Positions 39,532-63,510 of a stretch of 64,000 nucleotides of DNA are shown here, in pieces. Made by a program: the position numbers and the translations under genes. The notes beneath the pieces are model-generated. The model saw only the letters and a program-made list of their open reading frames with translations, was not told where the DNA came from and did no database searches. Location of the stretch: the sequence record OP557969.1; one strand, given 5' to 3'. The stretch is from Escherichia phage ph0011. Position 1 is the first letter of the stretch; the number at the start of each line of letters is the position of its first letter.

Positions 39532-39795
39532 ATGAATATCCAAGATAGATTACAATTGTTGTGCACACTTGAACAAGCTGCTTATGAACTTGTTAATAAA
39601 ATCTCTGAAGAACTTCCCAAAGGAACTAGAGTTCGTGTTCGTGAAATGGATTATGTAACGGGTGAAATTGAAGAAAAAGTTTTAACAGTGGTTAAAGTAA
39701 CATACTATGAGTCAGAGCTATCAATTCAATGTAAGTCAGATAATGGTTACATTTCCTACTATGGCACTGATATAGAGATGGAGGTAATCAAATGA
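39532..39795 (+). CDS. small hypothetical protein
   Basis: In-frame ATG at 39532 after GGTGGA. Confidence 0.5.
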   Translation: MNIQDRLQLLCTLEQAAYELVNKISEELPKGTRVRVREMDYVTGEIEEKVLTVVKVTYYESELSIQCKSDNGYISYYGTDIEMEVIK

Positions 39796-40934
39796 CCCTT
39801 TTACAAATATATGAAGATTTGATGCACTTATGTAATACCCGTGAGGCTTTCTTTTATGTAGATCATAAAAGTCCTGCTGGTGGCACATATCGTGTATTCA
39901 GTTATCGACTAGCATCATATACTGATTTCATGCAACCGAATGCATTGGAAACCCGTGGTTCTATGTGGGAAATCGATGACGATGGCAACATGATACGTTG
40001 TGCATCACGTTGTATGAAAAAGTTCTTTAATGCTTACGAAAATCCTGCTACGATGTTCCCTGCTGATACCAAATGTGATGACATTGCAGTAGTGATGCCT
40101 AAGTTGGATGGTTCAATTATCAGTTCTTACCGTGATAATGATGGTATTATTCGTTGTAAATCACATACCTCATTGTATTCTGACCATGCAATTAACAGTA
40201 CTCGACTAATTAACGAGAACCAGAATTTGTATCAGTACATTGATGAAGCTGAACGTTTGGGTTACACGGTTAACATGGAGTACACAAGCCCAGAGTACCG
40301 AATCGTATTGCCATATCAGGTAGAACAACTATTTGTTCTAAACGTCCGTCATCGTGTAAGTGGTGAATTGTTGTGTGGTAAAGCATTACGCGAAAAGTTT
40401 CCTTGTCTTTCACAGTACAGCACCAATATGACAGGTAAAGATATTCATCACACGTTTCCGGTAAGAAATACATTTCGTGAAAGTGTTGAAGAAGTTCATA
40501 AAATGCTTGATATTGAGGGTTTTGTTTGTATTCTAAAAGATGGGACAATGTGTAAAATAAAGACGGATTGGTATAGTTCATTACATCTAACAAAAGACAG
40601 TATCATTATTGATTCACATTTGTTCGAAGCTGTGTTAAATGGTTCAAGTGACGACTTGAAACAATTATTCAGTACTGACGAATATGCTATGCAAAAGATA
40701 TTGAGAATGGAACAATTGGTATTTTCGTGCTATAATTCATTACAAGATGAGGTAGAAAACTTCGTCAATACACACAAGCACTTGGGACGAAAGGAATTCG
40801 CAATGAAGGTTCAGGAGTGTTTGACTAATGAACTAAATCGTCAGGGCTTGGCCTTTGCAATGTATAACAATAAGTATGTTGATTATAAAGAAACTCTTAT
40901 CAAATACATGAAAGTAGTACTAAAGGACTTTTAG
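39792..40934 (+). CDS. rnlA: RNA ligase 1 (T4 Rnl1/gp63-like)
   Basis: ATGA overlap after GAGG; 380 aa; N-terminal segment FFYVDHKSPAGGTYRVFSYRLASYTDFMQPNALETRGSMWEID closely parallels T4 Rnl1 as I recall it, including the adenylylation-site lysine context. Confidence 0.9.
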   Translation: MTLLQIYEDLMHLCNTREAFFYVDHKSPAGGTYRVFSYRLASYTDFMQPNALETRGSMWEIDDDGNMIRCASRCMKKFFNAYENPATMFPADTKCDDIAVVMPKLDGSIISSYRDNDGIIRCKSHTSLYSDHAINSTRLINENQNLYQYIDEAERLGYTVNMEYTSPEYRIVLPYQVEQLFVLNVRHRVSGELLCGKALREKFPCLSQYSTNMTGKDIHHTFPVRNTFRESVEEVHKMLDIEGFVCILKDGTMCKIKTDWYSSLHLTKDSIIIDSHLFEAVLNGSSDDLKQLFSTDEYAMQKILRMEQLVFSCYNSLQDEVENFVNTHKHLGRKEFAMKVQECLTNELNRQGLAFAMYNNKYVDYKETLIKYMKVVLKDF

Positions 40935-42032: not shown

Positions 42033-42965
42033 ATGCCGACTATCACACTAACAGTTGGTTTACCTGGATGTGGTAAAACAACATGGGCAGTACAAGAGAT
42101 TAAAAAAGCCAAATCCAAGACTATCAATATCAACCGTGATGATATTCGTGAATCGATGGCTGGGTCACATGATGCTTACAAATTCAATGATGCTAATGAG
42201 AAGTACGTAACTAATTTACAGTTCAGTGCAGCAAAATTAGCAGCAGAGAATGGTTGGAATATTATTGTATCCGACACAAACCTTAAACCACATTTCCGTG
42301 AACAATGGAAAATGTGGGCTAAAGATAATGGTTATGATTATAAAGAAAAGAACTTCTATGATGATTTTGTACCAAAGGAAGACCGTGGTGCAGATGTTCA
42401 TGAATTCTTTAAGATTAAAGAGTTTGTAAAACTTTGTAAGAAATATAACCTCCAGCGTGAGCGTTCAGTACAAGATAATATCATTGACACAATGGCAGAT
42501 ACGTACTATTATAGTAAGGCATTGCATATTGGTTACTATGGTAATTCTCGTGAAGAAGCGATTATCGTTGATATCGATGGAACTCTTGCTCATAAATGGA
42601 ACCGCAATCCATTTGATGAAAGTACAGTTCTCCAAGATACACCAGACGAAGAAGTTATTTTGTCTGTTATCGCCGAAGCAGTTTTTCATAAACGCAAGAT
42701 TATTGTCATGAGTGGTCGTACTGAAGGGTGTCGTGCTGACACAGAACAGTGGTTGAAGAATTGGGGTGTTCCCTACGATGCATTGTTTATGCGAGGCATT
42801 GATGATAAACGTCCCGATGATGTTGTTAAATTCGACCTGTACATGAAAAATGTGGTTGATCATTACGATGTTAAAAAAGTATATGATGACAGAGCACAAG
42901 TCGTATTCATGTGGCGTAAACTACTTGGATTGAAAGTGATGCAAGTTGCGGAAGGAAATTTTTAG
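42033..42965 (+). CDS. pseT: polynucleotide 5'-kinase/3'-phosphatase (T4 Pnk-like)
   Basis: ATG after AAGGAG; P-loop GLPGCGKTT in kinase domain; phosphatase DxDGT motif (VDIDGTL); collinear with T4 PseT as I recall it. Confidence 0.92.
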   Translation: MPTITLTVGLPGCGKTTWAVQEIKKAKSKTININRDDIRESMAGSHDAYKFNDANEKYVTNLQFSAAKLAAENGWNIIVSDTNLKPHFREQWKMWAKDNGYDYKEKNFYDDFVPKEDRGADVHEFFKIKEFVKLCKKYNLQRERSVQDNIIDTMADTYYYSKALHIGYYGNSREEAIIVDIDGTLAHKWNRNPFDESTVLQDTPDEEVILSVIAEAVFHKRKIIVMSGRTEGCRADTEQWLKNWGVPYDALFMRGIDDKRPDDVVKFDLYMKNVVDHYDVKKVYDDRAQVVFMWRKLLGLKVMQVAEGNF

Positions 42966-45887: not shown

Positions 45888-46103
45888 ATGATTACATTTT
45901 TTGCAATATATGGGTTTGTTGCGTTTTGTTCATTTATATGTAACTTTCTAGTACTAAATTGGAATTGTTTCAAAGATGAAATCATAACTGCAATGAGTCT
46001 GCAATCAGCAGCACTAATGGCTATAATTTGGCCTGTAACTATGGTGTATCTTTTTATCTCAATAATAAAAGATATCACATCCCACTTCAAGAGAAAGAAA
46101 TAA
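45888..46103 (+). CDS. small predicted membrane protein
   Basis: ATG ORF; hydrophobic 71 aa. Confidence 0.5.
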   Translation: MITFFAIYGFVAFCSFICNFLVLNWNCFKDEIITAMSLQSAALMAIIWPVTMVYLFISIIKDITSHFKRKK

Positions 46104-46354
46104 TGTTTAACACAGACTATTCACATTTACGATATCTTATGTCTTTGGCTGATGATTTTATTAATGATTTGAAGCCTAAGTATATTGGACAGGAAGTAAG
46201 TTTGATAAACTCTAGGGGTTATGGAAAGTACATTATTACTGATATGTATATTAGCGGTGGAGAATGGCGTTTCAAAGTTAATACGTATCTTAAAGATGGT
46301 TCTTTTGCAGGTACACAAGTTACAAAACACACTAACATTATATGGTTGAAATAA
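46103..46354 (+). CDS. small hypothetical protein
   Basis: ATG at 46103 (TAATG overlap). Confidence 0.5.
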   Translation: MFNTDYSHLRYLMSLADDFINDLKPKYIGQEVSLINSRGYGKYIITDMYISGGEWRFKVNTYLKDGSFAGTQVTKHTNIIWLK

Positions 46355-46356
46355 TA

Positions 46357-47100
46357 ATGAAACATTTCTTAGAAGTTACAGTACCGGATGATAAAGATTT
46401 ATATATTGTTGGTGATTTACATGGTAATGGAAAACTGTGGGACGCGACTAAGAAAGAGTTCGGTGTCACCAACGAAGATTACGTGTTTTCTGTTGGTGAT
46501 GTTATTGACCGTGGTGACCAGAACTCTAAGCTTCTATTTGAATTCCTTTTCGGTGAAAACCGTTTTATGATTACTGGGAACCACGAGATGATGTGTGTTG
46601 ATTCTGAAACTCATCGTGACTGGTATCACTGTTGGGTCCAAAATGGTGGAGATAAGTTCATTGATGAAGTTGGGGTAACAGGCATTCAATTCTTTCGTCA
46701 GTACTTAAATGATCTCCCTATGATTATCCAAATCAATCACCGAGGATTGAAGATTGGGTTAGTTCATGCAGGTGTTCCATTGGAATATACAACATGGGAA
46801 CGTTTCGTTAATGGGACAAAATCACTTAGTGCTGATATAATTGAGAAGTGCTTGTGGGAACGTGATACATTTGACTACTGCAAGAAAAATAACACATATT
46901 ACGCCCCTAGACTTGATGGTATCCATTGCGTATTTAGTGGTCATACCGCAGTATCTGACCCACTCATTTATGGTAATCGTATTTGGATTGATAGTCAGTT
47001 TTTAACAGGTGATTTGACTCTTGCAACTCCACAAAGCGGTGGGATGAGATACTTACGTAAAGAAAAAGATGAGTACTCATTCAATCGTTTCAAAAGGTAA
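46357..47100 (+). CDS. metallophosphoesterase (Ser/Thr-phosphatase-like)
   Basis: Motifs GDLHG, GDVIDRG, GNHE characteristic of calcineurin-like phosphoesterases; start could also be the ATG at 46342. Confidence 0.75.
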   Translation: MKHFLEVTVPDDKDLYIVGDLHGNGKLWDATKKEFGVTNEDYVFSVGDVIDRGDQNSKLLFEFLFGENRFMITGNHEMMCVDSETHRDWYHCWVQNGGDKFIDEVGVTGIQFFRQYLNDLPMIIQINHRGLKIGLVHAGVPLEYTTWERFVNGTKSLSADIIEKCLWERDTFDYCKKNNTYYAPRLDGIHCVFSGHTAVSDPLIYGNRIWIDSQFLTGDLTLATPQSGGMRYLRKEKDEYSFNRFKR

Positions 47101-47105
47101 TAATT

Positions 47106-47366
47106 ATGCATGACGTAATTAAAAAATACTTAAATGATAGATATGTCCTGACAAAATCTATTAATTCTATACTAAAAGACCATGCTAATCAAATACATGA
47201 GATTCTATCCGAGAAACTTATTGGTTGTTCAGTTGAATTTGACTACAAAAAGAATATCGGAGTTATTCGACGTGTAGTTGATGTTTATGAACAAAATGTA
47301 TATGTTGAAATTGTATATGATGGTAAATTATTACAACTAAGTACTGAAGATTTGACATTTTTATAA
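47106..47366 (+). CDS. small hypothetical protein
   Basis: ATG after AAAGG. Confidence 0.55.
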   Translation: MHDVIKKYLNDRYVLTKSINSILKDHANQIHEILSEKLIGCSVEFDYKKNIGVIRRVVDVYEQNVYVEIVYDGKLLQLSTEDLTFL

Positions 47367-47376
47367 GGAAATAGAA

Positions 47377-47604
47377 ATGAAAGTAATTCAAGTTATGGTA
47401 GAAAAATACCAAACTGAAGATGGTCGCATTTTTGATTCAGCAAAACAAGCTGAACATCATGAACGTATTATTTCTGGTACACGTAAAGTGTGTCCTACAT
47501 GTAATGGAACACAACAAGTACCGTCAGAGGATTACCGCAGCTTTTATGCTTGTCCACAGTGTGACGGTAAAGGTTACGTAGAAAAACAAGAGGTATGGAA
47601 ATGA
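47377..47604 (+). CDS. small zinc-ribbon protein
   Basis: ATG after AAGGA; CPTC ... CPQC cysteine pairs. Confidence 0.55.
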   Translation: MKVIQVMVEKYQTEDGRIFDSAKQAEHHERIISGTRKVCPTCNGTQQVPSEDYRSFYACPQCDGKGYVEKQEVWK

Positions 47605-48014
47605 AATTATATTGCTTAACTAATATGTATTGTCAAGGTGTCCAAGCTGGTATTCAAGCATTTCATGCTGGAGTTAAACTAATCAAAGAATATGAAGGTT
47701 CTTCGTTCAGTACTATGATTGATGAATGGTACAATGAGCATGAAACTATTGTAGTACTAAATGCGGGTGGACATGATAAATTAAATTCTTATTATAAAGA
47801 CCTTAACAAACAGGGAACAGTTCCGTTTGCCAAATTCAATGAAGCTGGATTGAATGATGCTATTACATGTATAGCAGTACTGTGTACATCTGAAATGGTT
47901 GAAGATATGTCTATTATGCGTATGAATCTTCCTGCTGGTGATCAGTTAATGCAGGTGAAATATGGATCATTATTTGACACATTAAAAGCAATTAGTACTA
48001 TGAGGACTATTTGA
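47601..48014 (+). CDS. hypothetical protein
   Basis: ATG at 47601 (ATGA overlap) 8 nt after AGAGG. Confidence 0.55.
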   Translation: MKLYCLTNMYCQGVQAGIQAFHAGVKLIKEYEGSSFSTMIDEWYNEHETIVVLNAGGHDKLNSYYKDLNKQGTVPFAKFNEAGLNDAITCIAVLCTSEMVEDMSIMRMNLPAGDQLMQVKYGSLFDTLKAISTMRTI

Positions 48015-49213
48015 TGGATTTTCCAGAGAAGTTATTTGTTGCACGTTCCTATATAAACCACAACCAAGTTAATGGTTATATTATCGATGCAACAAAATCA
48101 CACACAAAAGCATTCGAAACAAAGAAAGAAAGAGCTGAGTACTGGGCCAACAAGAACAAACTCCCATCGTTGTATATTGATAATGTACCAACTACAGGTT
48201 TTTGTGTAGTTGATAAATTGACAATTCATGCACGTGAAACATATTTCACTATCCGACATCCTGAAGGATTTGAATTTATGATTAGTTCCAAAAACATGAA
48301 TGATTTGATTATTAATAATGATATAATTAAAGGTGTTTTTGTTGACCCAATGTTTTTCAATAATAACTTAGAGTTGATCAATGGTAAAACAAAAGCATTT
48401 GCTAAGTTGGTTGATAAAGAAAATAAAAAAGAAAAACAAAAAGAAATTGTAGCAGGACTCAAAGTTGGTGATGGCTTCACTTATAACAAAGAAGATTACT
48501 ATTACTGTGGTAAAGTACATGCAATTTGTATAAAGAAAACTAAAGAATTTGCATACCCAGATAAAAGTTCAGTATATCATTTAGTGTTTAATAGTTCTCG
48601 TGGAACTTATGCTTTGAATCAACGTTTGGATAATTACAAACTGGAACCTCGTGCTCTTTTGAATAAGAAGACTACAACAGATGAAGAAATTAAACTTGCT
48701 AATGAATTTTGGCAAAGCTATAGAACAAACAGACATAACCCATTAGGTGAATCTAACATTCCAGTACTGGTACACAATAAATCATTTAAAGCAAAAGACC
48801 TTAAAATTAAATACGAAGAAATAAATGTTGATGATCTTATGAACAATGGACGTTTCAACGAAAACGTACCATTCATGACTAAAGATAATGAACAATCTTA
48901 TCGCGTATTTTTTGGTGTAAGTAATAATACAACACGTAGTTATTACGGGCGTAGTGGAGATTACACTATCCATTACAATGATAAATTTGAACGATTTAGT
49001 GCATATCCAGTTCAAATAGATGATAATGGAATTATGGTAATGGATGTTGATATTAACACACACTCTTCATTCAGTACATGGAATGGTCATCGTTCTCCAT
49101 TCTTTCCACCAAATGAACGCAAAACATCAAGTACTCGTTACTATCAAGATAAGCCGTGTCACGTACAACTAGCAATCAGCAATCCACTTTACATTGGAAA
49201 GTATTATCTATAA
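48014..49213 (+). CDS. hypothetical protein (399 aa)
   Basis: ATG at 48014 overlapping upstream TGA, 8 nt after GAGGA. Confidence 0.65.
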   Translation: MDFPEKLFVARSYINHNQVNGYIIDATKSHTKAFETKKERAEYWANKNKLPSLYIDNVPTTGFCVVDKLTIHARETYFTIRHPEGFEFMISSKNMNDLIINNDIIKGVFVDPMFFNNNLELINGKTKAFAKLVDKENKKEKQKEIVAGLKVGDGFTYNKEDYYYCGKVHAICIKKTKEFAYPDKSSVYHLVFNSSRGTYALNQRLDNYKLEPRALLNKKTTTDEEIKLANEFWQSYRTNRHNPLGESNIPVLVHNKSFKAKDLKIKYEEINVDDLMNNGRFNENVPFMTKDNEQSYRVFFGVSNNTTRSYYGRSGDYTIHYNDKFERFSAYPVQIDDNGIMVMDVDINTHSSFSTWNGHRSPFFPPNERKTSSTRYYQDKPCHVQLAISNPLYIGKYYL

Positions 49214-49224
49214 AGGAATATACA

Positions 49225-50643
49225 ATGAGCATTTTAGCAATTATTGAAAGCATTAAAAATACTAGTAGTACACTAGGCAAAAAAGCTATCCTTGAACAAA
49301 ATAAAGATAACTTAACTTTACAAAAAGTACTGAAATATACTCTCGACCCTTCAATTGTAAGTGGCTATAAGAAACTCCCTGCCGCTGATGACGTAGATCA
49401 ACATATGACGTTAGATGAAGCAATTGATAAGCTAGAATGCATTTACAAGCGTAGCTTGACAGGAAATGCGGGGCGTGATTTCATTGCTTCAGTACTGGGT
49501 TCAGTATCAGAAGATGATCAGGAAGTTCTCCGTAAAATGCTCACTAAGAACCTTGATTGTGGTATCCAAGAAAAGAACTGCAATGATGTGTTTGGTAAAG
49601 GATTCATCAAAGACGAACCATATATGCGTTGTTCTTTGATTGACAAAAAGACTGCAAAGAACATTAACTTCAAAGACTATGGCTATGCAGTCTCTGAGGT
49701 GAAAATGGATGGTCAGTACTTGAACCACGTTGTCATTAATGGTTCATTAACTTCTACATCCCGTAATGGTAAACTCTACGACTTCCTGGGTTGTCGTGAT
49801 GGTGAGATGGCAGGTCTTGCTCACATCATCCAAAGTAAAGATGAACGTTTTAGTAGTGGTGTAGTCTTTATGGGTGAAGGTGTAGTACTGGATACTGATG
49901 GAGAAACCATTCTCCCGCGTACTACAGGTAATGGTATTATTCAGAAAGCTGGAAAAGATTCAATCACTCAAAGTGAAGCAATGCGTACTGTATTCGTTCT
50001 ATGGGATGTTGTTCCATATGATGCATTCAGTGAAGGTGTATGGAATGTAAAACGTAAAGAACGCCGCGAGATCTTAGTTGGTGCAATCAATGAACTCGGT
50101 AGTGAATTTGTTCGTATGGTTGGGTTCCGTAAAGTTAACAACATCAAAGAAGCATTTGAGTACAACAGTGAACTGATGAACAAAGGTGAAGAAGGTTCAG
50201 TACTGAAATGTGAAGATGGTATCTGGAAATCTCATACTTCTCCTAAGCAGTTGAAAATGAAACTTAAGATGCAATTGGATTTGCGTATTGTTGGTTTCAA
50301 TGAAGGTGAAGGTAAGCGTAAAGGTAGCCTTGGTTCTTTACAACTGGAAAGTGCATGTGGTACACTAAAAGTAAATGTAGGTACAGGTATCCGTGAAAAA
50401 GATGCCGAATGGACGTTTAAAACCATTTGGGAAAGAATGCAAGAACTCATTGGTAAAGTAGTAACCGTGGAGTGCAATGATATAGTACAAGATAAGCGTA
50501 CTGGCGAACCATCACTATTTTTACCTGTGTTTATTGAATTTAGATTTGACAAAAACACTTGCGACGATTATACTCGTATCTTAGAAATTCGTGATAGTGC
50601 AGTTGAAGTGTTTTCAAACAGTATTATTGAAGTTTTAGGTTAA
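49225..50643 (+). CDS. 30: ATP-dependent DNA ligase (T4 gp30-like)
   Basis: ATG at 49225 after AAAGGAA; N-terminal KKAILEQNKDN and active-site KMDG (Kx-DG) motif; overall collinear with T4 DNA ligase as I recall it. Confidence 0.9.
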   Translation: MSILAIIESIKNTSSTLGKKAILEQNKDNLTLQKVLKYTLDPSIVSGYKKLPAADDVDQHMTLDEAIDKLECIYKRSLTGNAGRDFIASVLGSVSEDDQEVLRKMLTKNLDCGIQEKNCNDVFGKGFIKDEPYMRCSLIDKKTAKNINFKDYGYAVSEVKMDGQYLNHVVINGSLTSTSRNGKLYDFLGCRDGEMAGLAHIIQSKDERFSSGVVFMGEGVVLDTDGETILPRTTGNGIIQKAGKDSITQSEAMRTVFVLWDVVPYDAFSEGVWNVKRKERREILVGAINELGSEFVRMVGFRKVNNIKEAFEYNSELMNKGEEGSVLKCEDGIWKSHTSPKQLKMKLKMQLDLRIVGFNEGEGKRKGSLGSLQLESACGTLKVNVGTGIREKDAEWTFKTIWERMQELIGKVVTVECNDIVQDKRTGEPSLFLPVFIEFRFDKNTCDDYTRILEIRDSAVEVFSNSIIEVLG

Positions 50644-50662
50644 CCATTTATTGGAGGTAATT

Positions 50663-51454
50663 ATGAAATTTGTCGTAACATCTGATGTACACGGTAGTAC
50701 TGATTACCTCCATAGTGGGGATTACAGCGATACAGTACTGATTATTGCGGGAGACTTCGATGAAGTTAAACGAAGTCGTTATCGTACTGGTATTGAATCA
50801 CTGTGTAAGCAGTTCAAGAATGTAGTTCTGGTTCCAGGAAACCATGAGTATTATGGTTCAAACATTCACAAAACGCATCGAGTACTGTCCGATATGCAAG
50901 ATGAGATTCCAAATTTCATCTTTTTGCAAAACAAATTTGTATGGCTGGATGGTGTACTGCTCGTTGGTAGCACACTATGGACTGACTTTGATAAAGGCAA
51001 TGCACTGGTTAAGTTTGATGCTCAACAAAAGATGAATGATTATAAACACATTCGTCATGGAACAACATCAGAACCGTGGAAACGTAAACTCAAACCTGAT
51101 GATGTTGAGTTCATGCATTATCAGGATAAACAATTTATCAAAAATTCAGTTGATACAGTTCGTCTAATGAATGATAATGATATCAAGGTTGTGGTGGTAA
51201 CACATCATGCACCAAGTTATCAGAGTGTATCTCCGAGATACAAGAATGACTCACTGAATGGATGTTATTGTTCTGATATGGACCAGTACATCGAAGATTT
51301 GGGTGCTGATGTTTGGATTCATGGTCACGTTCATAGTAGCTTTGACTACCACATTGGTAAGACACGTATCATTTGTAATCCACGAGGCTATGAATCGTAC
51401 AGTGGTGCTTGTGAGAATTTTGATTACAATCCAAAATTTGTAGTTGAAATCTAA
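50663..51454 (+). CDS. metallophosphoesterase
   Basis: ATG after GGAGG; motifs SDVHG, GDFDE, GNHE, GHVH typical of the calcineurin-like superfamily. Confidence 0.75.
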   Translation: MKFVVTSDVHGSTDYLHSGDYSDTVLIIAGDFDEVKRSRYRTGIESLCKQFKNVVLVPGNHEYYGSNIHKTHRVLSDMQDEIPNFIFLQNKFVWLDGVLLVGSTLWTDFDKGNALVKFDAQQKMNDYKHIRHGTTSEPWKRKLKPDDVEFMHYQDKQFIKNSVDTVRLMNDNDIKVVVVTHHAPSYQSVSPRYKNDSLNGCYCSDMDQYIEDLGADVWIHGHVHSSFDYHIGKTRIICNPRGYESYSGACENFDYNPKFVVEI

Positions 51455-51463
51455 GGTAAGGTT

Positions 51464-51859
51464 ATGATACATACATTTCACATTGATGATAAGATGCTTG
51501 TTATATTGAGTTGCTGTCATATGTTTCAACGATTGGGTATGCGTATGCTATACTCTTGTGACAAAATCCAATACTACAATCCTGATGGTACTGGTACAGT
51601 GATGAAAGATAGATATAACTTCACCCGTGATGTAAAACGAGCAGACGATTTAGATTCATTTGTGGGAAAGGCGTATGTTCTTGTTCATGATGACAGTCGT
51701 GGTGATGTGTTACCATTCAGCACTTTATCAATTAATATGTTCTTTAAATATGAACAATTTTCAAATACACTAAGAATGATTGAGATTGATTTTGATAACA
51801 TTCCTGTTGGTACACGTTATGAATTTCTTTATGCCCTTACCACAATAGGGGTGTACTGA
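51464..51859 (+). CDS. hypothetical protein
   Basis: ATG after AAGG; 131 aa. Confidence 0.55.
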   Translation: MIHTFHIDDKMLVILSCCHMFQRLGMRMLYSCDKIQYYNPDGTGTVMKDRYNFTRDVKRADDLDSFVGKAYVLVHDDSRGDVLPFSTLSINMFFKYEQFSNTLRMIEIDFDNIPVGTRYEFLYALTTIGVY

Positions 51860-52242
51860 TGGAAAATGTCGTTGTATATGTATTTGAGATCAATAATGAA
51901 ATCAAGTACGTAATTAATGGTTATAAACATTACACAAGAGCAGACCGAAAGCTGGAAATATATTCAAAAGAAGCAAGAAACTACTGCTTAGGTGATGATT
52001 CAGTTGAGGTTTGGATTGATGGAAATGCAGAGTATTTTGATGCTGACTTCTATGATGATCTTGACAAATCAAATGACTTGTACATTTATGTAGAAAATGA
52101 ACATTATTACACAAATTCTTTGTTTGACATTACCGACAGTACAGTATATGATACTGCTATGGTTAAGTTACTAAAGATTGACCACGATATGTTTAATAAA
52201 CATACAATTTGTGGTTTATTAGATTTTTTCAGAAACTTGTAG
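51859..52242 (+). CDS. hypothetical protein
   Basis: ATG overlapping upstream TGA; 127 aa. Confidence 0.55.
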   Translation: MENVVVYVFEINNEIKYVINGYKHYTRADRKLEIYSKEARNYCLGDDSVEVWIDGNAEYFDADFYDDLDKSNDLYIYVENEHYYTNSLFDITDSTVYDTAMVKLLKIDHDMFNKHTICGLLDFFRNL

Positions 52243-52301: not shown

Positions 52302-52997
52302 ATGGTTGAACAATTCAATTTTGGTGGTTATGCTAATGGTGAAGTAAGTAACATTTCTATTCCATATGTAGTTGAGAAAGTTAATGGTTCAGAACGTACA
52401 TATGATCTAGCATCTCGTATGATGCAAGACCGTATCATTTTCCTTGATACTGACTTCAATGACCAAATGGCACATATCATCAAACAACAATTGGTGTGGT
52501 TAGACTCACAAGGTGATTCCCCTATTACATTCTATATTAGCTCACCGGGCGGTTCAGTACACGCAGGATTGGGTATTGCAGATGTTGCCAAGTCTTGTGT
52601 TTCACCAATTCGTACTGTAGTAATGGGTTATGCAGCTTCAATGGGGTGTTATACTCAATCGGTAATTGGTACTAAAGGTTTTCGTTTAGGTGGTAAGCGT
52701 TCTTACTTTATGTGTCATCAAGTAAGTTCTGGCACACAAGGTTTAATTACCGACCAGAAGATTTCACTTAAACATTCTGATGAATTGAATACACTATTGA
52801 CCAAAGAAATCGCAGAAGCAGTAGGTGTTTCTCATGAACAACTACTGAAAGATGCAGACCGTGATTTGTGGTTGAATGCTGAAGAAGCACTCGAATATGG
52901 TGAAAAAGGATTTATCGATGGTATTATCCTTGGACCACGCAACGAGAAAGGTCAATACCTAGTCAAGCGTCGTGGTGGTGTTGAAGAGTGGGTGTAA
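52302..52997 (+). CDS. ClpP-like serine protease (peptidase S14 family)
   Basis: ATG after GAGGAAAA; segments RIIFLDTDFND, ISSPGGSVHAG, GYAASMGC (Ser), MCHQ (His) align with canonical ClpP. Confidence 0.85.
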   Translation: MVEQFNFGGYANGEVSNISIPYVVEKVNGSERTYDLASRMMQDRIIFLDTDFNDQMAHIIKQQLVWLDSQGDSPITFYISSPGGSVHAGLGIADVAKSCVSPIRTVVMGYAASMGCYTQSVIGTKGFRLGGKRSYFMCHQVSSGTQGLITDQKISLKHSDELNTLLTKEIAEAVGVSHEQLLKDADRDLWLNAEEALEYGEKGFIDGIILGPRNEKGQYLVKRRGGVEEWV

Positions 52998-53045
52998 AAT
53001 AGTTTTATTGATACCCCAAATGGGGTATCATCTTTTGGAGATTAT

Positions 53046-55356: not shown

Positions 55357-58029
55357 TTAAGCACTGATTGTTACAGTTGCAGTATCTTTTTTATTACCAT
55401 CCACTGTAGTCACTGTAATGATTACAGAACCTTCTTCTAGAGCAGTTACTAATCCATCATCACTAATAGATACTTTAGTAGGTTTATCTGCACTATAAGT
55501 TACTGATTTGTTAGTTGCTTTAGCTGGTAGAACTTCTGGAACTAGTTGAACTGTTTTAGTTCCTGATAGTGAAAGTTCAGTAGTTTTAGGTGTTAAACTA
55601 ACACTGGATACTGGAACTGGAATATTAACGATTACTGATGTTTGACCAGTAACATCACTACCATCAGCGGCAGTAGCGATAATATTTGCAGTACCATTAG
55701 TTAGTGCAGTTACGATACCAGTATTAGCATCTACTTTAGCAATTTCTGGAGCACTGGATGACCAAATTACATTTTTATTGGTTGCATCACTTGGGGTAAT
55801 TGCAGCAGCCATTTGTTTAGTTGCATTCAATGTAGTCAAAGTTTGATCTTTAGGAGTTACATCAATTGCAGTTACTGGCACTGGAATATTAACAGTAATA
55901 ACACCTTGACCTGTTTTACCACTTCCATCAGCAGCAGTTGCGATAATGTTTGCAGAACCGTTAGTTAACGCAGTTACAACACCAGTACTAGCATCTACTT
56001 TCGCTACAGCAGGTTTACTGGAAGACCATGTTACAGATTTATTTGTTGCGTTAGTTGGAAGAACTTCAGCAGCCATTGCTTGAGTTGCGTTAACAGCAGT
56101 CAATGTTTTAGTTGCTGGAGTAACATTAATAGATGCGACTGGAACTGGAATTGCTACAGTTACCGCACATTTTGCAGTTTTTGCTCCATCAGCAGTTGTT
56201 ACTGTGATATCAGCAGTGCCATTTGCTACAGCAGTGATTAAACCAGTTGGACTAACAGTTGCCACTCCATCAGCAGAAGTACTATAAGTTACTGCTTTGT
56301 TGGTAGCATTAGGTGGTAGTACAGTTGGTGTTAGTTGTTGAGTATCACCGACTGAAGTTAATTTAGCACTTGTTGGAGATACTGATACACTTGCAACAGG
56401 AACTGGAATGTTAACAGTTACCACGCAAACTTTAGAAAATCCACCATCAGATGTGGTTGCTGTAATATTTGCAGTACCGTTTGCAACAGCAGTGATTAAA
56501 CCAGTTGGACTTACCGTTGCGACACCCTCAGCAGAAGTAGTGTATGAAATATCTTTACGACGAGCGTTATCTGGAATAACAGATGCAGTTAGTTGTTGAG
56601 TAGCACCTACAGAAGTTAGGGTTGCTGTCAACGGAGTCATATTAATTCCAGTTACTGGGATCGTTACATCAATCACTGATTCAGCAGTTTTAGCACCATC
56701 ATCAGTGGTAACAGTAATAGTTGTAGTACCGTTATCAACCGAAGTTACTAGACCAGTATTACTAACTTTTGCTACGTCTGGATATGAAGAAACATATGAA
56801 ACTGCTTTATTGGATGCAGTTGCAGGAGCAACGGTTGTTTCTAATTGTTTAGTATCACCTAATGTTGAGAATGTATAAGTACTAGGAGTCATTGTGACAC
56901 CAGATACTGGTGTTTTCACTGTGATTGTAGTAGTGTCCGTTTTAGCACCATCTTCGGTTGTAGCTGTAATCACCACTGTGCCGTTAGCCACACCAGTTAC
57001 TAGACCAGAAGTAGGGTTAACAGTTGCTATATCAGGTGTTGCTGAAGACCACGTGACGTTTTTATTAGTTGCATCATCAGGAGATATTGTAGCAGTTAAT
57101 TGTTGAGTACTGCCAACGTTAATTGATGCAGTTTTAGGAGAAACAACAACACCACTAACTGGAGTTGTTACAGTAACAGTACATTTTGAAACAAATGAAC
57201 CATCAACTGTAGTTGCAATTACATCAGTACTGCCATCTGCAATACCAGTTACCATACCAGTTGGACTTACAGTTGCGAAGCGTGGTATACTGGATGACCA
57301 AATAACACTTTTATCACTTGCATCATCGGGTGATACGGTAGCTGTTAGTTGATGAGTTTTACCAACACCAAGAGATAGAGTTGAAGGAGAAACAACAACA
57401 CCACTAACTGGAGTTGTTACAGTAAATGCACAAACATCGGTGAAACCACCATCATGAGTAGTAACTGTTACATTTGCATTACCATTAGCACGGGCAATTG
57501 CTAAACCAGTTTGAGCATCAACTTCAACTATTGTTGGAGCAGAGGAACTATAACTTACTGTTGGATCATTTGCATAATCTGGATTAATTGTAGCTGATAG
57601 TTGTTGTGTGCTACCAACTTTAAGTGCTACTACTTTGGGTGAAATAATAACACCATTAACTGGTGTAGTATAATCACGTTTAACCACACGACCATTGTTC
57701 AATTTAATAATACGACCCATATAAAGAGTAGCATATCCCTTACTAATCCCATCATCTACATAAATCATAAATGAATTGTCTTGAACCATATTAATTGCGT
57801 CTACTGGCTTAACAGTATTTGGAATGTCGATACCACGGGTATCATACCAACACATGGAAACTTTGTAATATATATCACCATTATCATTGATGAGATCATA
57901 CACGTTACTGGAACGTTGACGGTTAATATATAAAGTTTCGGTTAATACCTTACCATCGATTTTAGCGACAGAAACTTTAATACCACCAATACCAAATGGC
58001 AATTTACCTTCACTAGATATTGCTTTCAT
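55357..58029 (-). CDS. large virion-surface-type protein with about nine to ten tandem Ig-like (Big_2-type) domains
   Basis: 890-aa ORF, the only strong minus-strand gene; AAGGAAA RBS; repeated 85-90-aa units TPVSGV..SP...L.VG.TQQLTATV.P.DATNK.V.WSS..P..A.V...G.VT.VA.GT..ITATT.DG; ~120-aa non-repeat N-terminal domain. Confidence 0.85.
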   Translation of the reverse strand: MKAISSEGKLPFGIGGIKVSVAKIDGKVLTETLYINRQRSSNVYDLINDNGDIYYKVSMCWYDTRGIDIPNTVKPVDAINMVQDNSFMIYVDDGISKGYATLYMGRIIKLNNGRVVKRDYTTPVNGVIISPKVVALKVGSTQQLSATINPDYANDPTVSYSSSAPTIVEVDAQTGLAIARANGNANVTVTTHDGGFTDVCAFTVTTPVSGVVVSPSTLSLGVGKTHQLTATVSPDDASDKSVIWSSSIPRFATVSPTGMVTGIADGSTDVIATTVDGSFVSKCTVTVTTPVSGVVVSPKTASINVGSTQQLTATISPDDATNKNVTWSSATPDIATVNPTSGLVTGVANGTVVITATTEDGAKTDTTTITVKTPVSGVTMTPSTYTFSTLGDTKQLETTVAPATASNKAVSYVSSYPDVAKVSNTGLVTSVDNGTTTITVTTDDGAKTAESVIDVTIPVTGINMTPLTATLTSVGATQQLTASVIPDNARRKDISYTTSAEGVATVSPTGLITAVANGTANITATTSDGGFSKVCVVTVNIPVPVASVSVSPTSAKLTSVGDTQQLTPTVLPPNATNKAVTYSTSADGVATVSPTGLITAVANGTADITVTTADGAKTAKCAVTVAIPVPVASINVTPATKTLTAVNATQAMAAEVLPTNATNKSVTWSSSKPAVAKVDASTGVVTALTNGSANIIATAADGSGKTGQGVITVNIPVPVTAIDVTPKDQTLTTLNATKQMAAAITPSDATNKNVIWSSSAPEIAKVDANTGIVTALTNGTANIIATAADGSDVTGQTSVIVNIPVPVSSVSLTPKTTELSLSGTKTVQLVPEVLPAKATNKSVTYSADKPTKVSISDDGLVTALEEGSVIITVTTVDGNKKDTATVTISA
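55360..57670 (-). repeat. in-frame tandem repeats of about 255-270 bp encoding Ig-like domains
   Basis: Recurrent nucleotide and peptide units visible across the gene body. Confidence 0.65.
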
Positions 58030-58329: not shown

Positions 58330-58935
58330 ATGAAACTATTCTTGAAAGAGATTGTACAAACCGTTGTTTTAATCGCTGCATTAAATTTTCCAGCAGCGGC
58401 AGAAGTTTCAAAAAAAGCATCTGTTCTTCTATTAAATGAACAGGTTGTATCAATGGATGGTGAACTAAATGATAATACGGTACAAGAAGTAGAGCAGTTG
58501 TGGAAAGAAAAAAGATTTAAAATTTTAACAATTACATCACCTGGGGGTGATTTTGATGCTGGTATTAAAATGGCAAATTTTGTTAGAGACAATGGTATAA
58601 ATTTAATTGTTTCTAAATATTGCAATTCGGCATGTACTGTGGTATTCTTTAGTGTATCCCCAGAAAAGCGATATATGACAAATCAATCAGTACTGGGATT
58701 GCATAATATTTCAATCAAAAGTAACGTTAAAGATATGGATCATACTTTCGTATCTGTTAGACAACTATCATCATTTACTGAAGAAATGGCAACAAAAGTA
58801 GGATTTTTATTTACACTATATTCAGCTAATGGTATTCCACCTAGCATTCTATATAAAGTTAGTCGTTCACGTGGTGAAGATGTTGTTATCTTAACAAAAA
58901 CAGACCTAATAAATTACGGTTCAGTCAATCCATGA
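58330..58935 (+). CDS. putative secreted ClpP/SppA-fold serine peptidase-like protein
   Basis: ATG after GAGG; N-terminal signal-peptide-like hydrophobic segment; ITSPGGDFDAG and CNSACTVVFF resemble the ClpP/S49 SPGG and Ser regions. Confidence 0.45.
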   Translation: MKLFLKEIVQTVVLIAALNFPAAAEVSKKASVLLLNEQVVSMDGELNDNTVQEVEQLWKEKRFKILTITSPGGDFDAGIKMANFVRDNGINLIVSKYCNSACTVVFFSVSPEKRYMTNQSVLGLHNISIKSNVKDMDHTFVSVRQLSSFTEEMATKVGFLFTLYSANGIPPSILYKVSRSRGEDVVILTKTDLINYGSVNP

Positions 58936-60076: not shown

Positions 60077-60829
60077 ATGATATCAGAAAAATTCATAAGT
60101 AATGAGGGAAACAAGAGATTACTTATCATCTCAGGAGCAGGTCTTTCCGTTGAAAGTGGTATGGACCCATTTCGTTTCGATGATGGCCTATGGGATACAT
60201 TTAAAATTAATGATGTATGTAATATTGCAAATTTAGATACAAAATATCATATTGTTCATTCGTTTTATAACACGCTGCGTGTTAAACTGGGTCAATGTGA
60301 ACCAAATGCAATGCATTATTTTATAAAATCATTAGAGGAACAATATGGTGATTGTTTCCTTCATATGACTTCAAATATGGATGATCTTTACACCCGTATT
60401 GGCGGTAAAGAACTTAAACTTCATGGTAATTTATGTGAAGTGATAGAAAATTATAGTATTAATGGTGATGATTACAACATTGTTAACTGTGGTTATGAGC
60501 CATATATCCCAAAACATGATATTTTTGCTAAACCAAATGTAGTGATGATTGGTGAGTATCATCGTTATGTAGATGGTGTACGCCTACCAATATATGAAGA
60601 ACGAAATAATGTCTTGAAATCCCTTGATGAAAATGATACAGTTATTGTTATTGGTAGCAGCGATACTGTTCTTGTATGGTCCCGATTGGTAGCATCATTG
60701 CCATGTTATAGTGTCAATGTTAATATTAGAAAGAATGATAATGATTTTTTGTTTAATGAAAAAATTATCAAGCCAGCAACCAAAGCAATACCACAACTAG
60801 AGACTATAATTAAGGAACGTATGAAATGA
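60077..60829 (+). CDS. Sir2-like (sirtuin family) protein
   Basis: ATG after AAGGA; LLIISGAGLSVESGMDPFR (GAGxS.ESG..FR), LHGNL (catalytic His), VVMIGE and TVIVIGSS motifs; canonical Zn CxxC pairs not evident. Confidence 0.78.
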   Translation: MISEKFISNEGNKRLLIISGAGLSVESGMDPFRFDDGLWDTFKINDVCNIANLDTKYHIVHSFYNTLRVKLGQCEPNAMHYFIKSLEEQYGDCFLHMTSNMDDLYTRIGGKELKLHGNLCEVIENYSINGDDYNIVNCGYEPYIPKHDIFAKPNVVMIGEYHRYVDGVRLPIYEERNNVLKSLDENDTVIVIGSSDTVLVWSRLVASLPCYSVNVNIRKNDNDFLFNEKIIKPATKAIPQLETIIKERMK

Positions 60830-61377
60830 GTGTTAAAGAAGTTCCCTTTGGTGAATATGGTTCACGTGCAAATTTTGTATTCTGCTATTTCTTTGCAAGA
60901 GGATGTAATCCCTACGAAAACTATGAGTTGAATGATATACCAGAAGTAAATTTAGTATTACTTCAACTACGATGGGATGGCCTTCTGGGTGGATGTGGTG
61001 GTACAGTTGAAAGTACTGATATCTCATTAGAAGATGCGTTGCGTCGTGAAATACAAGAAGAAATGAACTACTATATTTTTGTTTCTCACCTAAAACCACT
61101 TAAAACGTTTGAAATTTACCCAGGTGCAAACAGTCATAGTTTCAGTTATGAAGTAACATATGATGAGTTAAAATACATTCGTGATGGGTATACAACTGCC
61201 AAACATGCAAGTGCCGAAGTTGCTGGTGTAAATTTATGTCACATTTCTCGTTATTCTAAGGGACAAAATCGAGAAGCGGGATATAATAATCTTATGACAC
61301 AGAACTTCATCGGTACAGCAAAACACGAATTAGCGTATCTGGTACAAAAAGAGAACTTACTAATTAGCTATCTATAG
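60826..61377 (+). CDS. Nudix-like hydrolase (tentative)
   Basis: ATGA overlap with the Sir2-like gene; Nudix-box-like GCGGTVE...RREIQEEMN with non-canonical spacing. Confidence 0.45.
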   Translation: MSVKEVPFGEYGSRANFVFCYFFARGCNPYENYELNDIPEVNLVLLQLRWDGLLGGCGGTVESTDISLEDALRREIQEEMNYYIFVSHLKPLKTFEIYPGANSHSFSYEVTYDELKYIRDGYTTAKHASAEVAGVNLCHISRYSKGQNREAGYNNLMTQNFIGTAKHELAYLVQKENLLISYL

Positions 61378-61387
61378 GAGTTTAAAA

Positions 61388-61708
61388 ATGTCTTACTCTA
61401 TGTTTTTGGATGACATTCGTGATGCAAAACAATATTACCCTAATCAAGATATGGTAGTATGTCGTGATTTTAACAGTGCGTGTGAATATGTTGTTAAAAA
61501 TGGAATTCCAGCATTTGTATCATTTGACCATGACTTGGGTGATATGAGTGGAGACGAAAAAACTGGATATTCTTTTGCTAAATTTCTTATTGATTATATG
61601 TTTGATAATAATATTAAAGAACCGTTTGAGTACTTTGTGCACAGTAGTAACCCAGTTGGTAAAGTTAACATTGAAACATACTTAAACAATGGATTTAATG
61701 CATTATGA
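61388..61708 (+). CDS. hypothetical protein
   Basis: ATG after AGGAG; 106 aa. Confidence 0.55.
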   Translation: MSYSMFLDDIRDAKQYYPNQDMVVCRDFNSACEYVVKNGIPAFVSFDHDLGDMSGDEKTGYSFAKFLIDYMFDNNIKEPFEYFVHSSNPVGKVNIETYLNNGFNAL

Positions 61709-62007
61709 TTCAAACACATATTAAAAGTATCATTTGCACTATACTACTAGGTGTAGGAGTTCTATGGTTCAGTAATTATCACGAGAACACTAAGCGTACA
61801 AATATTCACTATAATACCGCAGAAGTTGTAAGTTTAGGACAATGTAGTGAGTACAAATGTTCGTTTATGTACAAAACCAGTAATGGTGAAGTACGTAATG
61901 GACTATCTAGTGAACCAGTTTCGATTGGTCAAATTGTTTACCAGGAGTGCTGGGAAGAAAAGGTTCGAGGTTCACGATGTTATGTTGAATACGAACCAAA
62001 AATGTAA
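61705..62007 (+). CDS. hypothetical protein with N-terminal transmembrane segment
   Basis: ATGA overlap; hydrophobic N-terminus. Confidence 0.5.
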   Translation: MIQTHIKSIICTILLGVGVLWFSNYHENTKRTNIHYNTAEVVSLGQCSEYKCSFMYKTSNGEVRNGLSSEPVSIGQIVYQECWEEKVRGSRCYVEYEPKM

Positions 62008-62070
62008 TAATAACATGAGTCAATAATAATAGCCGAGTACAAGGATGTACTCACAATTCAAGGATGTTTT

Positions 62071-63510
62071 ATGAAAAAATATACAATTGACACAAACGTA
62101 CTACTATCTGATCCAAATGCATCTGTTGCTTTTGATGGTGCTGCAATCATTCTACCATTTACAGTACTGGAAGAATTGGATTCGATTAAGAGTCGCAATG
62201 TTGATGTTTCACGTGATGCTCGTGTTGCGATTCGTAACATTGAAGCAATTATTGCAGAGGCATCACATAATGAGATTAGTTGTACTGGTGTTAATATTGC
62301 TGATGTTCATACCAATATGAGTCCTGAAAGCAAATTGTTTGTTATTACAAACGAAGAAGCTGAAGCACTAATTCGTACTAAGGCAATTGAAGATAAAGTT
62401 CAAACACTTCTCAAAAGTTCTGTACCAGATGATAAAATTATCTTAGTCGCTTTAGCAACTGATTCAGTACTGGTTACCCGTGATATCAATATGCGTATCA
62501 AGGCTCTTAGTTATGGAGTTGAAGTACAGGATTATCGTCATGATGTGGTTATCGGTGATAGCGATCTAATGCACGTAGGTCAACATCATCTCGATATCGA
62601 TTTCTGGGCAGAATTCAGTGGGATTGAAAATGCTGAAATTAAATCTGAAAAAACAGGTCGCCGCCTGTATCATTATATCCCAACACATCTAATCAAAGAT
62701 CTTCTTCCACAAAATCTTTGTATTGGTGACTATCTATATGATAATGCTGATGTGCTCTTTGTTTACGAAGGTCAGTCTGCAATCGAAGAAGATGATGGTA
62801 GTCTAACACCAGAAGATATTTTGGTCTTCCAAGATATTGGTCAATCTGTTGCATTACGTGCTAATGTATGGGATATTAAAGCTAAGAATGTCAAACAAGC
62901 ACTAGCTATTAATAGTATTCTCGATCCCGATGTACATCTAACAGTTCTACTAGGTTCTGCTGGGACAGGAAAAACACTAATTACGATTGCTACTGCACTA
63001 GAGTTAGTTCTGGAAAAACGTAAATACGACCGTATTATCTTCTCTAAAACACAAGATTCACAGTTTGAAGATATCGGATTCTTGCCTGGTTCAGAGGCCG
63101 AGAAAGTGATTCCATTTTGTGGTCCAGCGATTGACGCACTAGAGTACCTACATAAAGATGATGCAAATCCACAAGGTAGCATTGAGGAAATCATGAAACG
63201 TAATGTTATCCAGTTCAAAGCATTGAACTTTATTCGTGGTCGTTCTTTTGCCAATACAATTCTAATTGTGGATGAAGCACAGAACTTAACACCAGCCCAG
63301 CTAAAAACTGTCTTGACAAGAGCCGGAGAAAACTGTAAAGTAATCATACTTGGTAACCTAGCACAGATCGATAACAAGTTTATCAGTCCAGTAAACAGCG
63401 GTCTAACTTATGTAACTGAGAAATTTAAAAATTGGTCTGGTTGTCGTATCATTGAATTGGAAGGTGTTGTTCGTTCACCACTTGCTGAATTTGCTGAAGA
63501 AAATATGTAA
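62071..63510 (+). CDS. phoH: PhoH-like ATPase with N-terminal PIN domain (YlaK type)
   Basis: ATG after AAGGA; PIN-like N-terminus (YTIDTNVLLSDPNA...LEELD); Walker A LLGSAGTGKT, Walker B ILIVDEAQNL. Confidence 0.88.
   Translation: MKKYTIDTNVLLSDPNASVAFDGAAIILPFTVLEELDSIKSRNVDVSRDARVAIRNIEAIIAEASHNEISCTGVNIADVHTNMSPESKLFVITNEEAEALIRTKAIEDKVQTLLKSSVPDDKIILVALATDSVLVTRDINMRIKALSYGVEVQDYRHDVVIGDSDLMHVGQHHLDIDFWAEFSGIENAEIKSEKTGRRLYHYIPTHLIKDLLPQNLCIGDYLYDNADVLFVYEGQSAIEEDDGSLTPEDILVFQDIGQSVALRANVWDIKAKNVKQALAINSILDPDVHLTVLLGSAGTGKTLITIATALELVLEKRKYDRIIFSKTQDSQFEDIGFLPGSEAEKVIPFCGPAIDALEYLHKDDANPQGSIEEIMKRNVIQFKALNFIRGRSFANTILIVDEAQNLTPAQLKTVLTRAGENCKVIILGNLAQIDNKFISPVNSGLTYVTEKFKNWSGCRIIELEGVVRSPLAEFAEENM

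Follow-up and report, generated by a model that had tools for sequence, protein, structure and literature searches.

The lambda-type phosphatase is among the commonest accessory enzymes of phages, and in the Pnkp/Hen1 RNA repair system of Clostridium thermocellum a lambda-phosphatase-like metallophosphoesterase (MPE) acts together with a kinase and a ligase. Another MPE, the M. tuberculosis enzyme PptH, cleaves 4'-phosphopantetheine off holo-carrier proteins, including the E. coli holo-acyl carrier protein (holo-ACP) in vitro; it has been reported as restricted to mycobacteria and of unknown physiological role, and its gene adjoins the transferase gene pptT in M. tuberculosis (PMC8557913). A small phage-encoded MPE, Gp48 of mycobacteriophage A10ZJ24, is expressed early, has phosphodiesterase activity and serves counter-defence by damaging host DNA (PMC12287305). 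Here we analysed two MPE genes, MPE1 (46357-47100) and MPE2 (50663-51454), and the DNA ligase gene between them in a stretch of 64,000 nt from Escherichia phage ph0011 (OP557969.1), hereafter the window. From family membership, intact metal ligands, synteny and structural neighbours, we lean towards the explanation that the two enzymes are independent of each other, MPE1 being a protein phosphatase and MPE2 a phosphodiesterase acting on protein-linked or small-molecule substrates, with the ligase as a neighbour by descent.

MPE1 (247 aa, + strand) scored 42.6 bits (1.2e-10) against the Pfam family PF00149 (Metallophos; gathering cut-off 21.5) and carries the motifs GDLHG (aa 19-23), GDVIDRG (47-53), GNHE (74-77), LVHAG (H137) and SGHT (H196). 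It matched PHROG 246, the 'NinI-like serine-threonine phosphatase' group, over residues 1-246 (1.6e-64). The comparison with lambda phosphatase that the initial annotation had called for was clear-cut, since 1G5B was the best relative of MPE1 in the PDB (2.3e-16) and aligned over its full length (residues 7-229 of MPE1 against 7-220), with GDLHG, GDxxDRG, GNHE, the 'xHA' His, the 'WxR' Arg and the 'GHT' His all matched. Both phosphate-binding Arg are kept, as R52 in GDVIDRG and R169 in LWER. Matches to the NCBIfam models for PrpA (1.4e-17, 64 bits; equivalog cut-off 326) and PrpB (1.5e-14, 54 bits; cut-off 332) were also found. The family is present in 1315 phage records by tblastn, the sampled matches being rV5-like, T5-like, lambdoid and Vibrio phages, and the orthologue in phage PBECO4 (gp114) carries the identical annotation. 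Because of its membership of PHROG 246, the alignment of its motifs with 1G5B and its occurrence in so many phage records, MPE1 is, as judged from its sequence, an ordinary phage lambda NinI/PrpA-type PPP phosphatase in which all of the predicted ligands and phosphate-binding residues (D20, H22, D48, R52, N75, H76, H137, R169 and H196) are intact. Two metals, which are Mn2+ in lambda phosphatase, would be held by D20, H22, D48, N75, H137 and H196 and would activate a water molecule, with H76 as the general acid and R52 and R169 binding the phosphate. Where we infer substrates, timing or biological role for either enzyme, we do so from such relationships: MPE1 would most likely strip phosphomonoesters from Ser/Thr(/Tyr) residues of host or phage proteins in the course of infection. 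The earlier suggestion that the two enzymes dephosphorylate host signalling molecules fits MPE1, as a predicted member of the lambda-type Ser/Thr phosphatase family.

MPE2 (263 aa, + strand) scored 52.1 bits against the same Pfam family and matched PHROG 1649, 'metallo-phosphoesterase', at 3e-72. Its motifs are SDVHG (aa 7-11), AGDFDE (D31), GNHE (59-62), THHAPS (H181) and GHVH (221-224), from which D8, H10, D31, N60, H181, H222 and H224 are the predicted metal ligands and H61 the catalytic His. The initial annotation had ascribed GDxHG and GNHE motifs to both proteins. Both open reading frames (ORFs) are indeed complete and contain GNHE, and they are the only ones among the window ORFs of at least 150 aa with GNH[ED], but the first motif of MPE2 retains the DxH within SDVHG and not GDxHG. 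The assignment to the calcineurin-like superfamily stands, with both proteins above the PF00149 gathering score, five motifs present in each, the beta-alpha-beta-alpha-beta sandwich of the superfamily found, and no metal-ligand residue missing from either on alignment. As the initial annotation had also stated, the two proteins are clearly different from each other: BLASTP gave an E value of 0.39 with the GNHE segment alone aligned. By their sequences they are not paralogues or a duplicated pair but members of unrelated MPE families.

Homologues of MPE2 were found in 197 phage records, covering all RaK2-like jumbo phages, KVP40-like vibriophages, T4-like rhizobiophages, cyanophages, Caulobacter, Brevundimonas and Stenotrophomonas phages and others, and on at least 583 IMG/VR stretches. 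Searched against 1.84 billion cluster representatives (50% identity), the MPE2 profile matched 9,284 of them with E<=1e-30, or 15,969 when the threshold was relaxed to E<=1e-10. Among the matches listed, the top 150 are single-domain proteins of ~250-295 aa. Where a non-phage bacterial context was sought for the homologues, the contigs examined were viral-looking or too short. In an alignment of 60 diverse homologues, D31, N60, H61, H181, H222 and H224 were invariant and D8 and H10 at least 90% conserved, and T104, W106, T107, M124-N125-D126-Y127, P184, S188, Y229, N239, G242 and Y243 were conserved in a family-specific manner. This very large, phage-dominated family is almost wholly uncharacterised and occurs in many large phages infecting Proteobacteria and Cyanobacteria. 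Curated cellular families gave weak or no matches to MPE2; the CpdA model gave 16.7 bits where 225 are required, and neither the equivalog models nor the closest fold pointed to a class III cyclic-nucleotide phosphodiesterase (CpdA/Icc/Rv0805). Comparison with Mre11/SbcD, which had also been suggested, did not bring out the combination of an MPE core with a capping domain and a Rad50/SbcC partner. A PADLOC candidate for MPE2, PDC-S10 (1.8e-12, N-terminal half), did not exceed the general Metallophos signal and was not taken as evidence of a defence function.

An AlphaFold2 model of MPE2, built with the alignment of 60 homologues, had a pLDDT of 95.6 and a pTM of 0.93. Foldseek placed this model closest to PptH (6UNC; TM 0.70 vs 0.57 for MPPED2), and the superposition with 6UNC extended beyond the MPE core, with 238 residues aligned vs ~199 for other MPEs. 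When the MPE2 sequence was searched against the PDB, 6UNC was the only, weak, phmmer match and the top profile match (1e-7). We also assembled 80 full-length PptH sequences, a shallow set taken entirely from mycobacterial genome loci. With this set, hhalign gave a probability of 97.6% over 234 columns between the MPE2 and PptH families, and the PptH HMM matched MPE2 and no other ORF of the window. Outside the ligands, S7, W106, T107, D126, Y127, P184, R235, G242 and Y243 are common to both families as far as the shallow PptH set can show, and many other positions differ between MPE2 and these 80 mycobacterial sequences, for example Y229/T and N239/V. Since Foldseek, phmmer and the profile search concur, M. 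tuberculosis PptH (Rv2795c) is, by sequence and by the modelled fold, the nearest characterised relative of MPE2. With identity at ~20%, this likeness is best taken as a lead on the chemistry, that of a phosphodiesterase possibly acting on a protein-bound phosphodiester, and not as a functional assignment. MPE2 is most likely a phosphodiesterase that uses the ligands and catalytic H61 named above, and its substrate is probably a host protein-linked or small-molecule phosphodiester as opposed to DNA ends. Our literature search found no paper tying phage enzymes to PptH.

The gene context lent this PptH lead no support. With E. coli AcpP and KVP40.0053 as phmmer queries, ACP-like ORFs were found neither in the window nor in 83 phage loci around MPE2 homologues. 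A tblastn search with AcpP recovered no more than 24 phage records that encode an ACP, and phages of Escherichia, Vibrio, Rhizobium or Synechococcus, the main MPE2 groups, were not among them; Acinetobacter, Brevundimonas and Xanthomonas phages occur on both the ACP and the MPE2 lists, which were not cross-checked. Genetic linkage of MPE2 to a carrier protein or a phosphopantetheinyl transferase (PPTase) was not found in searches that covered ACP and did not address PPTase genes directly. An apparent linkage in KVP40 was dropped: KVP40.0053 (locus L003, 5885-6130), two genes 3' of the MPE2 homologue, carries a GenBank note of PF00550, but current Pfam gives no PF00550 match and the sequence is without the DSL motif. 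It is possible, though we consider it unlikely, that PHROG 1649 including MPE2 consists of PptH-type hydrolases of protein-linked phosphodiesters, which would remove 4'-phosphopantetheine from holo-ACP or another Ser/Thr/Tyr-O-phosphodiester. If so, these enzymes would halt the making of fatty acids and lipids in infected Gram-negative hosts, or neutralise some host process that depends on the modification, and both phosphoesterases of the block described here would be erasers that remove phospho-linked modifications from proteins, not nucleic-acid enzymes. Dephosphopantetheinylation of holo-ACP by a phage would be a new route for the shutdown of host lipid metabolism. The PptH relationship of so abundant a phage family is the one modestly new and testable lead.

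The 6-kb region from 46000 to 52000 matched 46 phage records, the best of which were PBECO4/121Q-type (Asteriusvirus) jumbo phages of Escherichia and Salmonella, with 88-90% nucleotide identity over 91-100% of the query. From its sequence, the window belongs to a diverged Asteriusvirus-type (PBECO4/121Q-like) jumbo coliphage of this known genus. The order of genes in the PBECO4 RefSeq equals that of the window, namely gp114, three small proteins, a 'hydrolase', a 399-aa hypothetical protein, gp109 and gp108, where gp114 is labelled 'NinI-like serine-threonine phosphatase', gp109 'DNA ligase' and gp108 'metallo-phosphoesterase'. The labels of MPE1 and MPE2 are thus already public in dozens of PBECO4/121Q-type genomes, where they are homology-based only, and the finding of the pair as such is routine, these being ordinary genes from a known phage lineage.

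The ATP-dependent DNA ligase (49222-50643, +; 473 aa) is of the T4 gp30 type, with matches to DNA_ligase_A_M (8e-14), DNA_ligase_OB_2 and PHROG 114 (2.6e-118), and is 31% identical to KVP40 gp30; its PBECO4 orthologue is gp109. The initial annotation had described the two MPE genes as flanking it. This is accurate for MPE2, which is separated from the ligase stop codon by 19 nt and preceded by a GGAGGT ribosome-binding site, but MPE1 ends 2,121 nt upstream of the ligase start, with four genes between. The block of NinI phosphatase, PTH2-like protein, ~400-aa protein, ligase, (small ORF), MPE, small ORF and ClpP is kept in Mimasvirus CBB, in PBECO4 and in IMG/VR relatives; therefore it is, on these sequences, an arrangement inherited within the RaK2-like jumbo phages. 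To place MPE2 more widely, we surveyed 83 loci with flanks of up to 10 kb on each side (89 loci in the counts of ligases and Pnkp), and compared 16 non-RaK2 contigs of at least 100 kb with the expectation from random placement of one copy, the loci being phylogenetically related. A homologue of MPE1 accompanied MPE2 in 5 of the 83 loci, all of them RaK2-like. The commonest recognisable neighbour was ClpP, present within 10 kb in 25/83 loci and in 6 of the 16 large contigs (1.8 expected, P ~0.005). This association exceeds that between the ligase and MPE2; in the window, ClpP lies two small ORFs 3' of MPE2. The Pfam labels on other recurrent neighbours (WYL_2, HTH_39, SWIM and several unknowns) gave no functional clue. 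In Ralstonia phage RSP15, a short 'NEDD4-binding protein' ORF is followed by three MPE genes within 3.5 kb (L172, 5171-8708), namely ORF097 (311 aa), ORF094 (184 aa) and the MPE2 homologue ORF091, so that groups of unrelated MPE genes recur in a distant phage family.

The initial annotation had proposed that the paired phosphatases beside the ligase may process nucleic-acid ends. In such a role, one or both of MPE1 and MPE2 would clear 3'-phosphates, 2',3'-cyclic phosphates or damaged termini for the DNA ligase or for the T4 Rnl1-type RNA ligase of the window, and the sealed breaks would be those cut by host defence nucleases. Calcineurin-like domains do sometimes serve as end-phosphatases in jumbo phages according to Iyer et al. 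(PMC7824862). A number of observations point the same way and weigh against the independence of the two enzymes. Across the RaK2-like group, MPE2 and the ligase are direct neighbours. In the survey, an ATP-dependent DNA ligase was encoded no more than 10 kb from the MPE2 homologue in 20-21 loci (21/89), an RNA ligase in 8/89 and Pnkp in 7/89, and a DNA or RNA ligase is in the flank of 19 of 83 non-RaK2 loci. A DNA ligase was near MPE2 in 5/16 of the large contigs against 1.8 expected (P ~0.025). The homologue is 2.2 kb from the gp30 ligase in KVP40 and 0.7 kb from a ligase in DLP_6 (in the order ligase, hypothetical, oxygenase, MPE), it is less than 300 bp from an RNA ligase in Caulobacter phage Cr30 (L171, 7908-9995; in the order MPE, one small ORF, RNA ligase) and in locus L010, and it is 145 bp from Pnkp in locus L036. 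Work from the Shuman laboratory has also reportedly shown that lambda phosphatase acts in vitro as a 2',3'-cyclic phosphodiesterase and that bacterial Pnkp has a phosphatase module resembling lambda phosphatase. Finally, the identity of MPE2 to PptH is just ~19-21%, which is weak ground for transferring a substrate. Against end processing, the side, order and distance at which the ligase lies from MPE2 differ greatly between loci (-4.4 kb to +6.9 kb). Moreover, of six annotated non-RaK2 genomes that were sampled, four have no DNA ligase less than 8 kb from the MPE: over that distance no ligase was found in CcrColossus, S-CRM01 and RSP15, and no DNA ligase in Cr30. The ligase proximity outside the RaK2-like phages, at ~2-3-fold over chance, is a real but weak tendency, of the size expected from a replication and accessory module shared by related large phages whose loci are not independent. 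The family of MPE1 is widespread among lambdoid, T5-like and rV5-like phages, and the nearest characterised relative of MPE2 is a hydrolase of protein phosphodiesters, not a nucleic-acid enzyme. Since a canonical T4-type Pnkp with a HAD 3'-phosphatase and an Rnl1 are already encoded upstream, a pair dedicated to end processing for the ligase is unsupported, and since the two MPEs belong to unrelated families, MPE1 is not adjacent to the ligase, co-occurrence is 5/83 and the ligase excess is modest, so is a functional pair. We therefore regard end processing as improbable.

It is less probable still that MPE2 is a nuclease that damages host DNA in shut-off or counter-defence, like Gp48 of A10ZJ24 or A1 of T5, with the ligase as an unrelated neighbour. 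MPE2 is, like Gp48, a small phage MPE, but as a single domain of 263 aa it is without a capping or DNA-binding domain, its structural ranking puts nucleases clearly below PptH, aq_1956, TT1561 and MPPED2, and it belongs to a PHROG of its own (1649) and to no nuclease family, the Gp48 and A1 sequences not having been compared directly. For MPE1, the corresponding question is whether it is an ApaH-like hydrolase of Ap4A or Np4 caps, or a nucleotide phosphodiesterase, and not a protein phosphatase. Weak matches to ApaH were indeed obtained (NCBIfam NF001204, 4.5e-7; PDB 9t9n, 0.006), but the score against the NF001204 equivalog model was 29.4 bits for a cut-off of 176, lambda phosphatase (2.3e-16, full length) and PrpA/PrpB (1e-17, 1e-14) far outscored ApaH, and the GDxxDRG motif with the two phosphate-binding Arg is kept. 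The ApaH-type comparison raised by the initial annotation was thus negative, and such an activity of MPE1 is very hard to credit. The explanation that we favour, of independent enzymes, is that MPE1 and MPE2 are two separate genes for binuclear-metal phosphoesterases, predicted to be catalytically intact, within a conserved co-directional accessory block, and that the proximity of the ligase would reflect the inherited RaK2-like gene order together with a general clustering of genes for accessory functions and nucleic-acid metabolism.

All long ORFs around MPE1 and MPE2 are on the + strand, and the GC content is low (29-39%). The four genes between MPE1 and the ligase encode an 86-aa protein (47106-47366, +; PHROG 38615, 7.1e-47; no Pfam match), a 75-aa CxxC...CxxCxGxG zinc-finger protein resembling the DnaJ central domain or anti-TRAP (47377-47604, +; PHROG 12574, 2.7e-40; Pfam Anti-TRAP 2.4e-7 and DnaJ_CXXCXGXG 5e-5, both under their gathering scores), a 139-aa 'hydrolase' like peptidyl-tRNA hydrolase 2 (PTH2; 47595-48014, +), and a 400-aa lineage-restricted protein immediately 5' of the ligase (48011-49213, +). 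The PTH2-like protein matched PF01981 (2.5e-6; 28.1 bits vs a cut-off of 23) and PHROG 3668 (3.3e-45), and a PDB sequence search with it gave no match; its gene adjoins the NinI-type phosphatase in CBB too, and it is an odd partner for the tRNA-repair genes upstream. The 400-aa protein has only eight homologues, its structure model was moderate and the fold search gave no match. The T4 Rnl1-type RNA ligase (39792-40934, +; RNA_lig_T4_1 2.2e-15, T4_Rnl1_C 4.9e-17) and the T4-type Pnkp (42033-42965, +; HAD_PNKP 6.9e-43, AAA_33 4.7e-14) form a complete tRNA-repair pair some 5-7 kb upstream of the region of MPE1 and MPE2.

Downstream of MPE2 is the ClpP-like protease (52302-52997, +; Pfam CLP_protease 1.6e-41), followed by the only terminator-like hairpin found on the + strand between 45.5 and 53.5 kb (53009-53030; 9-bp stem, T-rich tail). 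A single hairpin at this place would fit transcription that reads through from MPE1 as far as ClpP, and is not decisive on operon structure; promoter-like sites were at chance level in our scan (37 vs 37.6). Further on are an 890-aa ORF on the minus strand (55357-58029) with nine Big_2 Ig-like repeats (Pfam 9.3e-136) and a local GC of 39% vs ~32%, a second, weaker ClpP-like ORF (58330-58935), and genes for Sir2, a Nudt16-like Nudix hydrolase and a PIN-PhoH fusion (60077-63510, +). PBECO4 has at the equivalent place nothing more than an ORF of 125 aa, also on the minus strand and labelled 'virion structural protein' (L001, 15705-16082), and the 890-aa ORF looks like a lineage-specific expansion or replacement. 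The neighbouring genes, which include the ClpP-like proteases, a dCMP deaminase, Sir2, the Nudt16-like Nudix hydrolase and PIN-PhoH, are of accessory and host-takeover types, and the region including the phosphatases resembles an accessory island centred on NAD, nucleotides and RNA.

Compared with the described systems, the window is closest to PBECO4, 121Q and other Asteriusvirus genomes, with which it shares an identical gene order, a MPE2 93% identical at the aa level and a ligase 95% identical, although the genome is diverged from PBECO4 and not identical to it. MPE1 shares all PPP motifs and a full-length alignment with the lambda NinI phosphatase (1G5B) and with E. coli PrpA/PrpB; its identity to lambda phosphatase is low, it has a C-terminal extension of ~25 aa, and it is found in a jumbo-phage accessory block whereas the lambda enzyme is found in the lambdoid nin region. 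As in the C. thermocellum repair system, a kinase, ligases and a lambda-like MPE are present within 11 kb. Unlike that system, the genes are separate and several kb apart, and the kinase, which is of the T4 type, carries a HAD phosphatase of its own; MPE1 lies 3.4 kb 3' of Pnkp with many small ORFs between, in neither a fusion nor a tight operon of the bacterial Pnkp type, and Pnkp phosphatase structures were absent from the 33 PDB matches of MPE1 at E<=0.01. Gp48 comes from another phage group and host, and the structural neighbours of MPE2 are not nucleases. PptH differs from MPE2 in its length of ~320 aa with a C-terminal tail, which MPE2 is without, and in the position of its gene beside pptT, no ACP gene having been found near MPE2 or its homologues in searches that did not extend to PPTase genes. 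What PptH and MPE2 have in common is all five MPE motifs, including GNHE and GHxH, together with, as judged from the shallow PptH set, the W-T, D-Y, P, R and G-Y residues conserved in both families.

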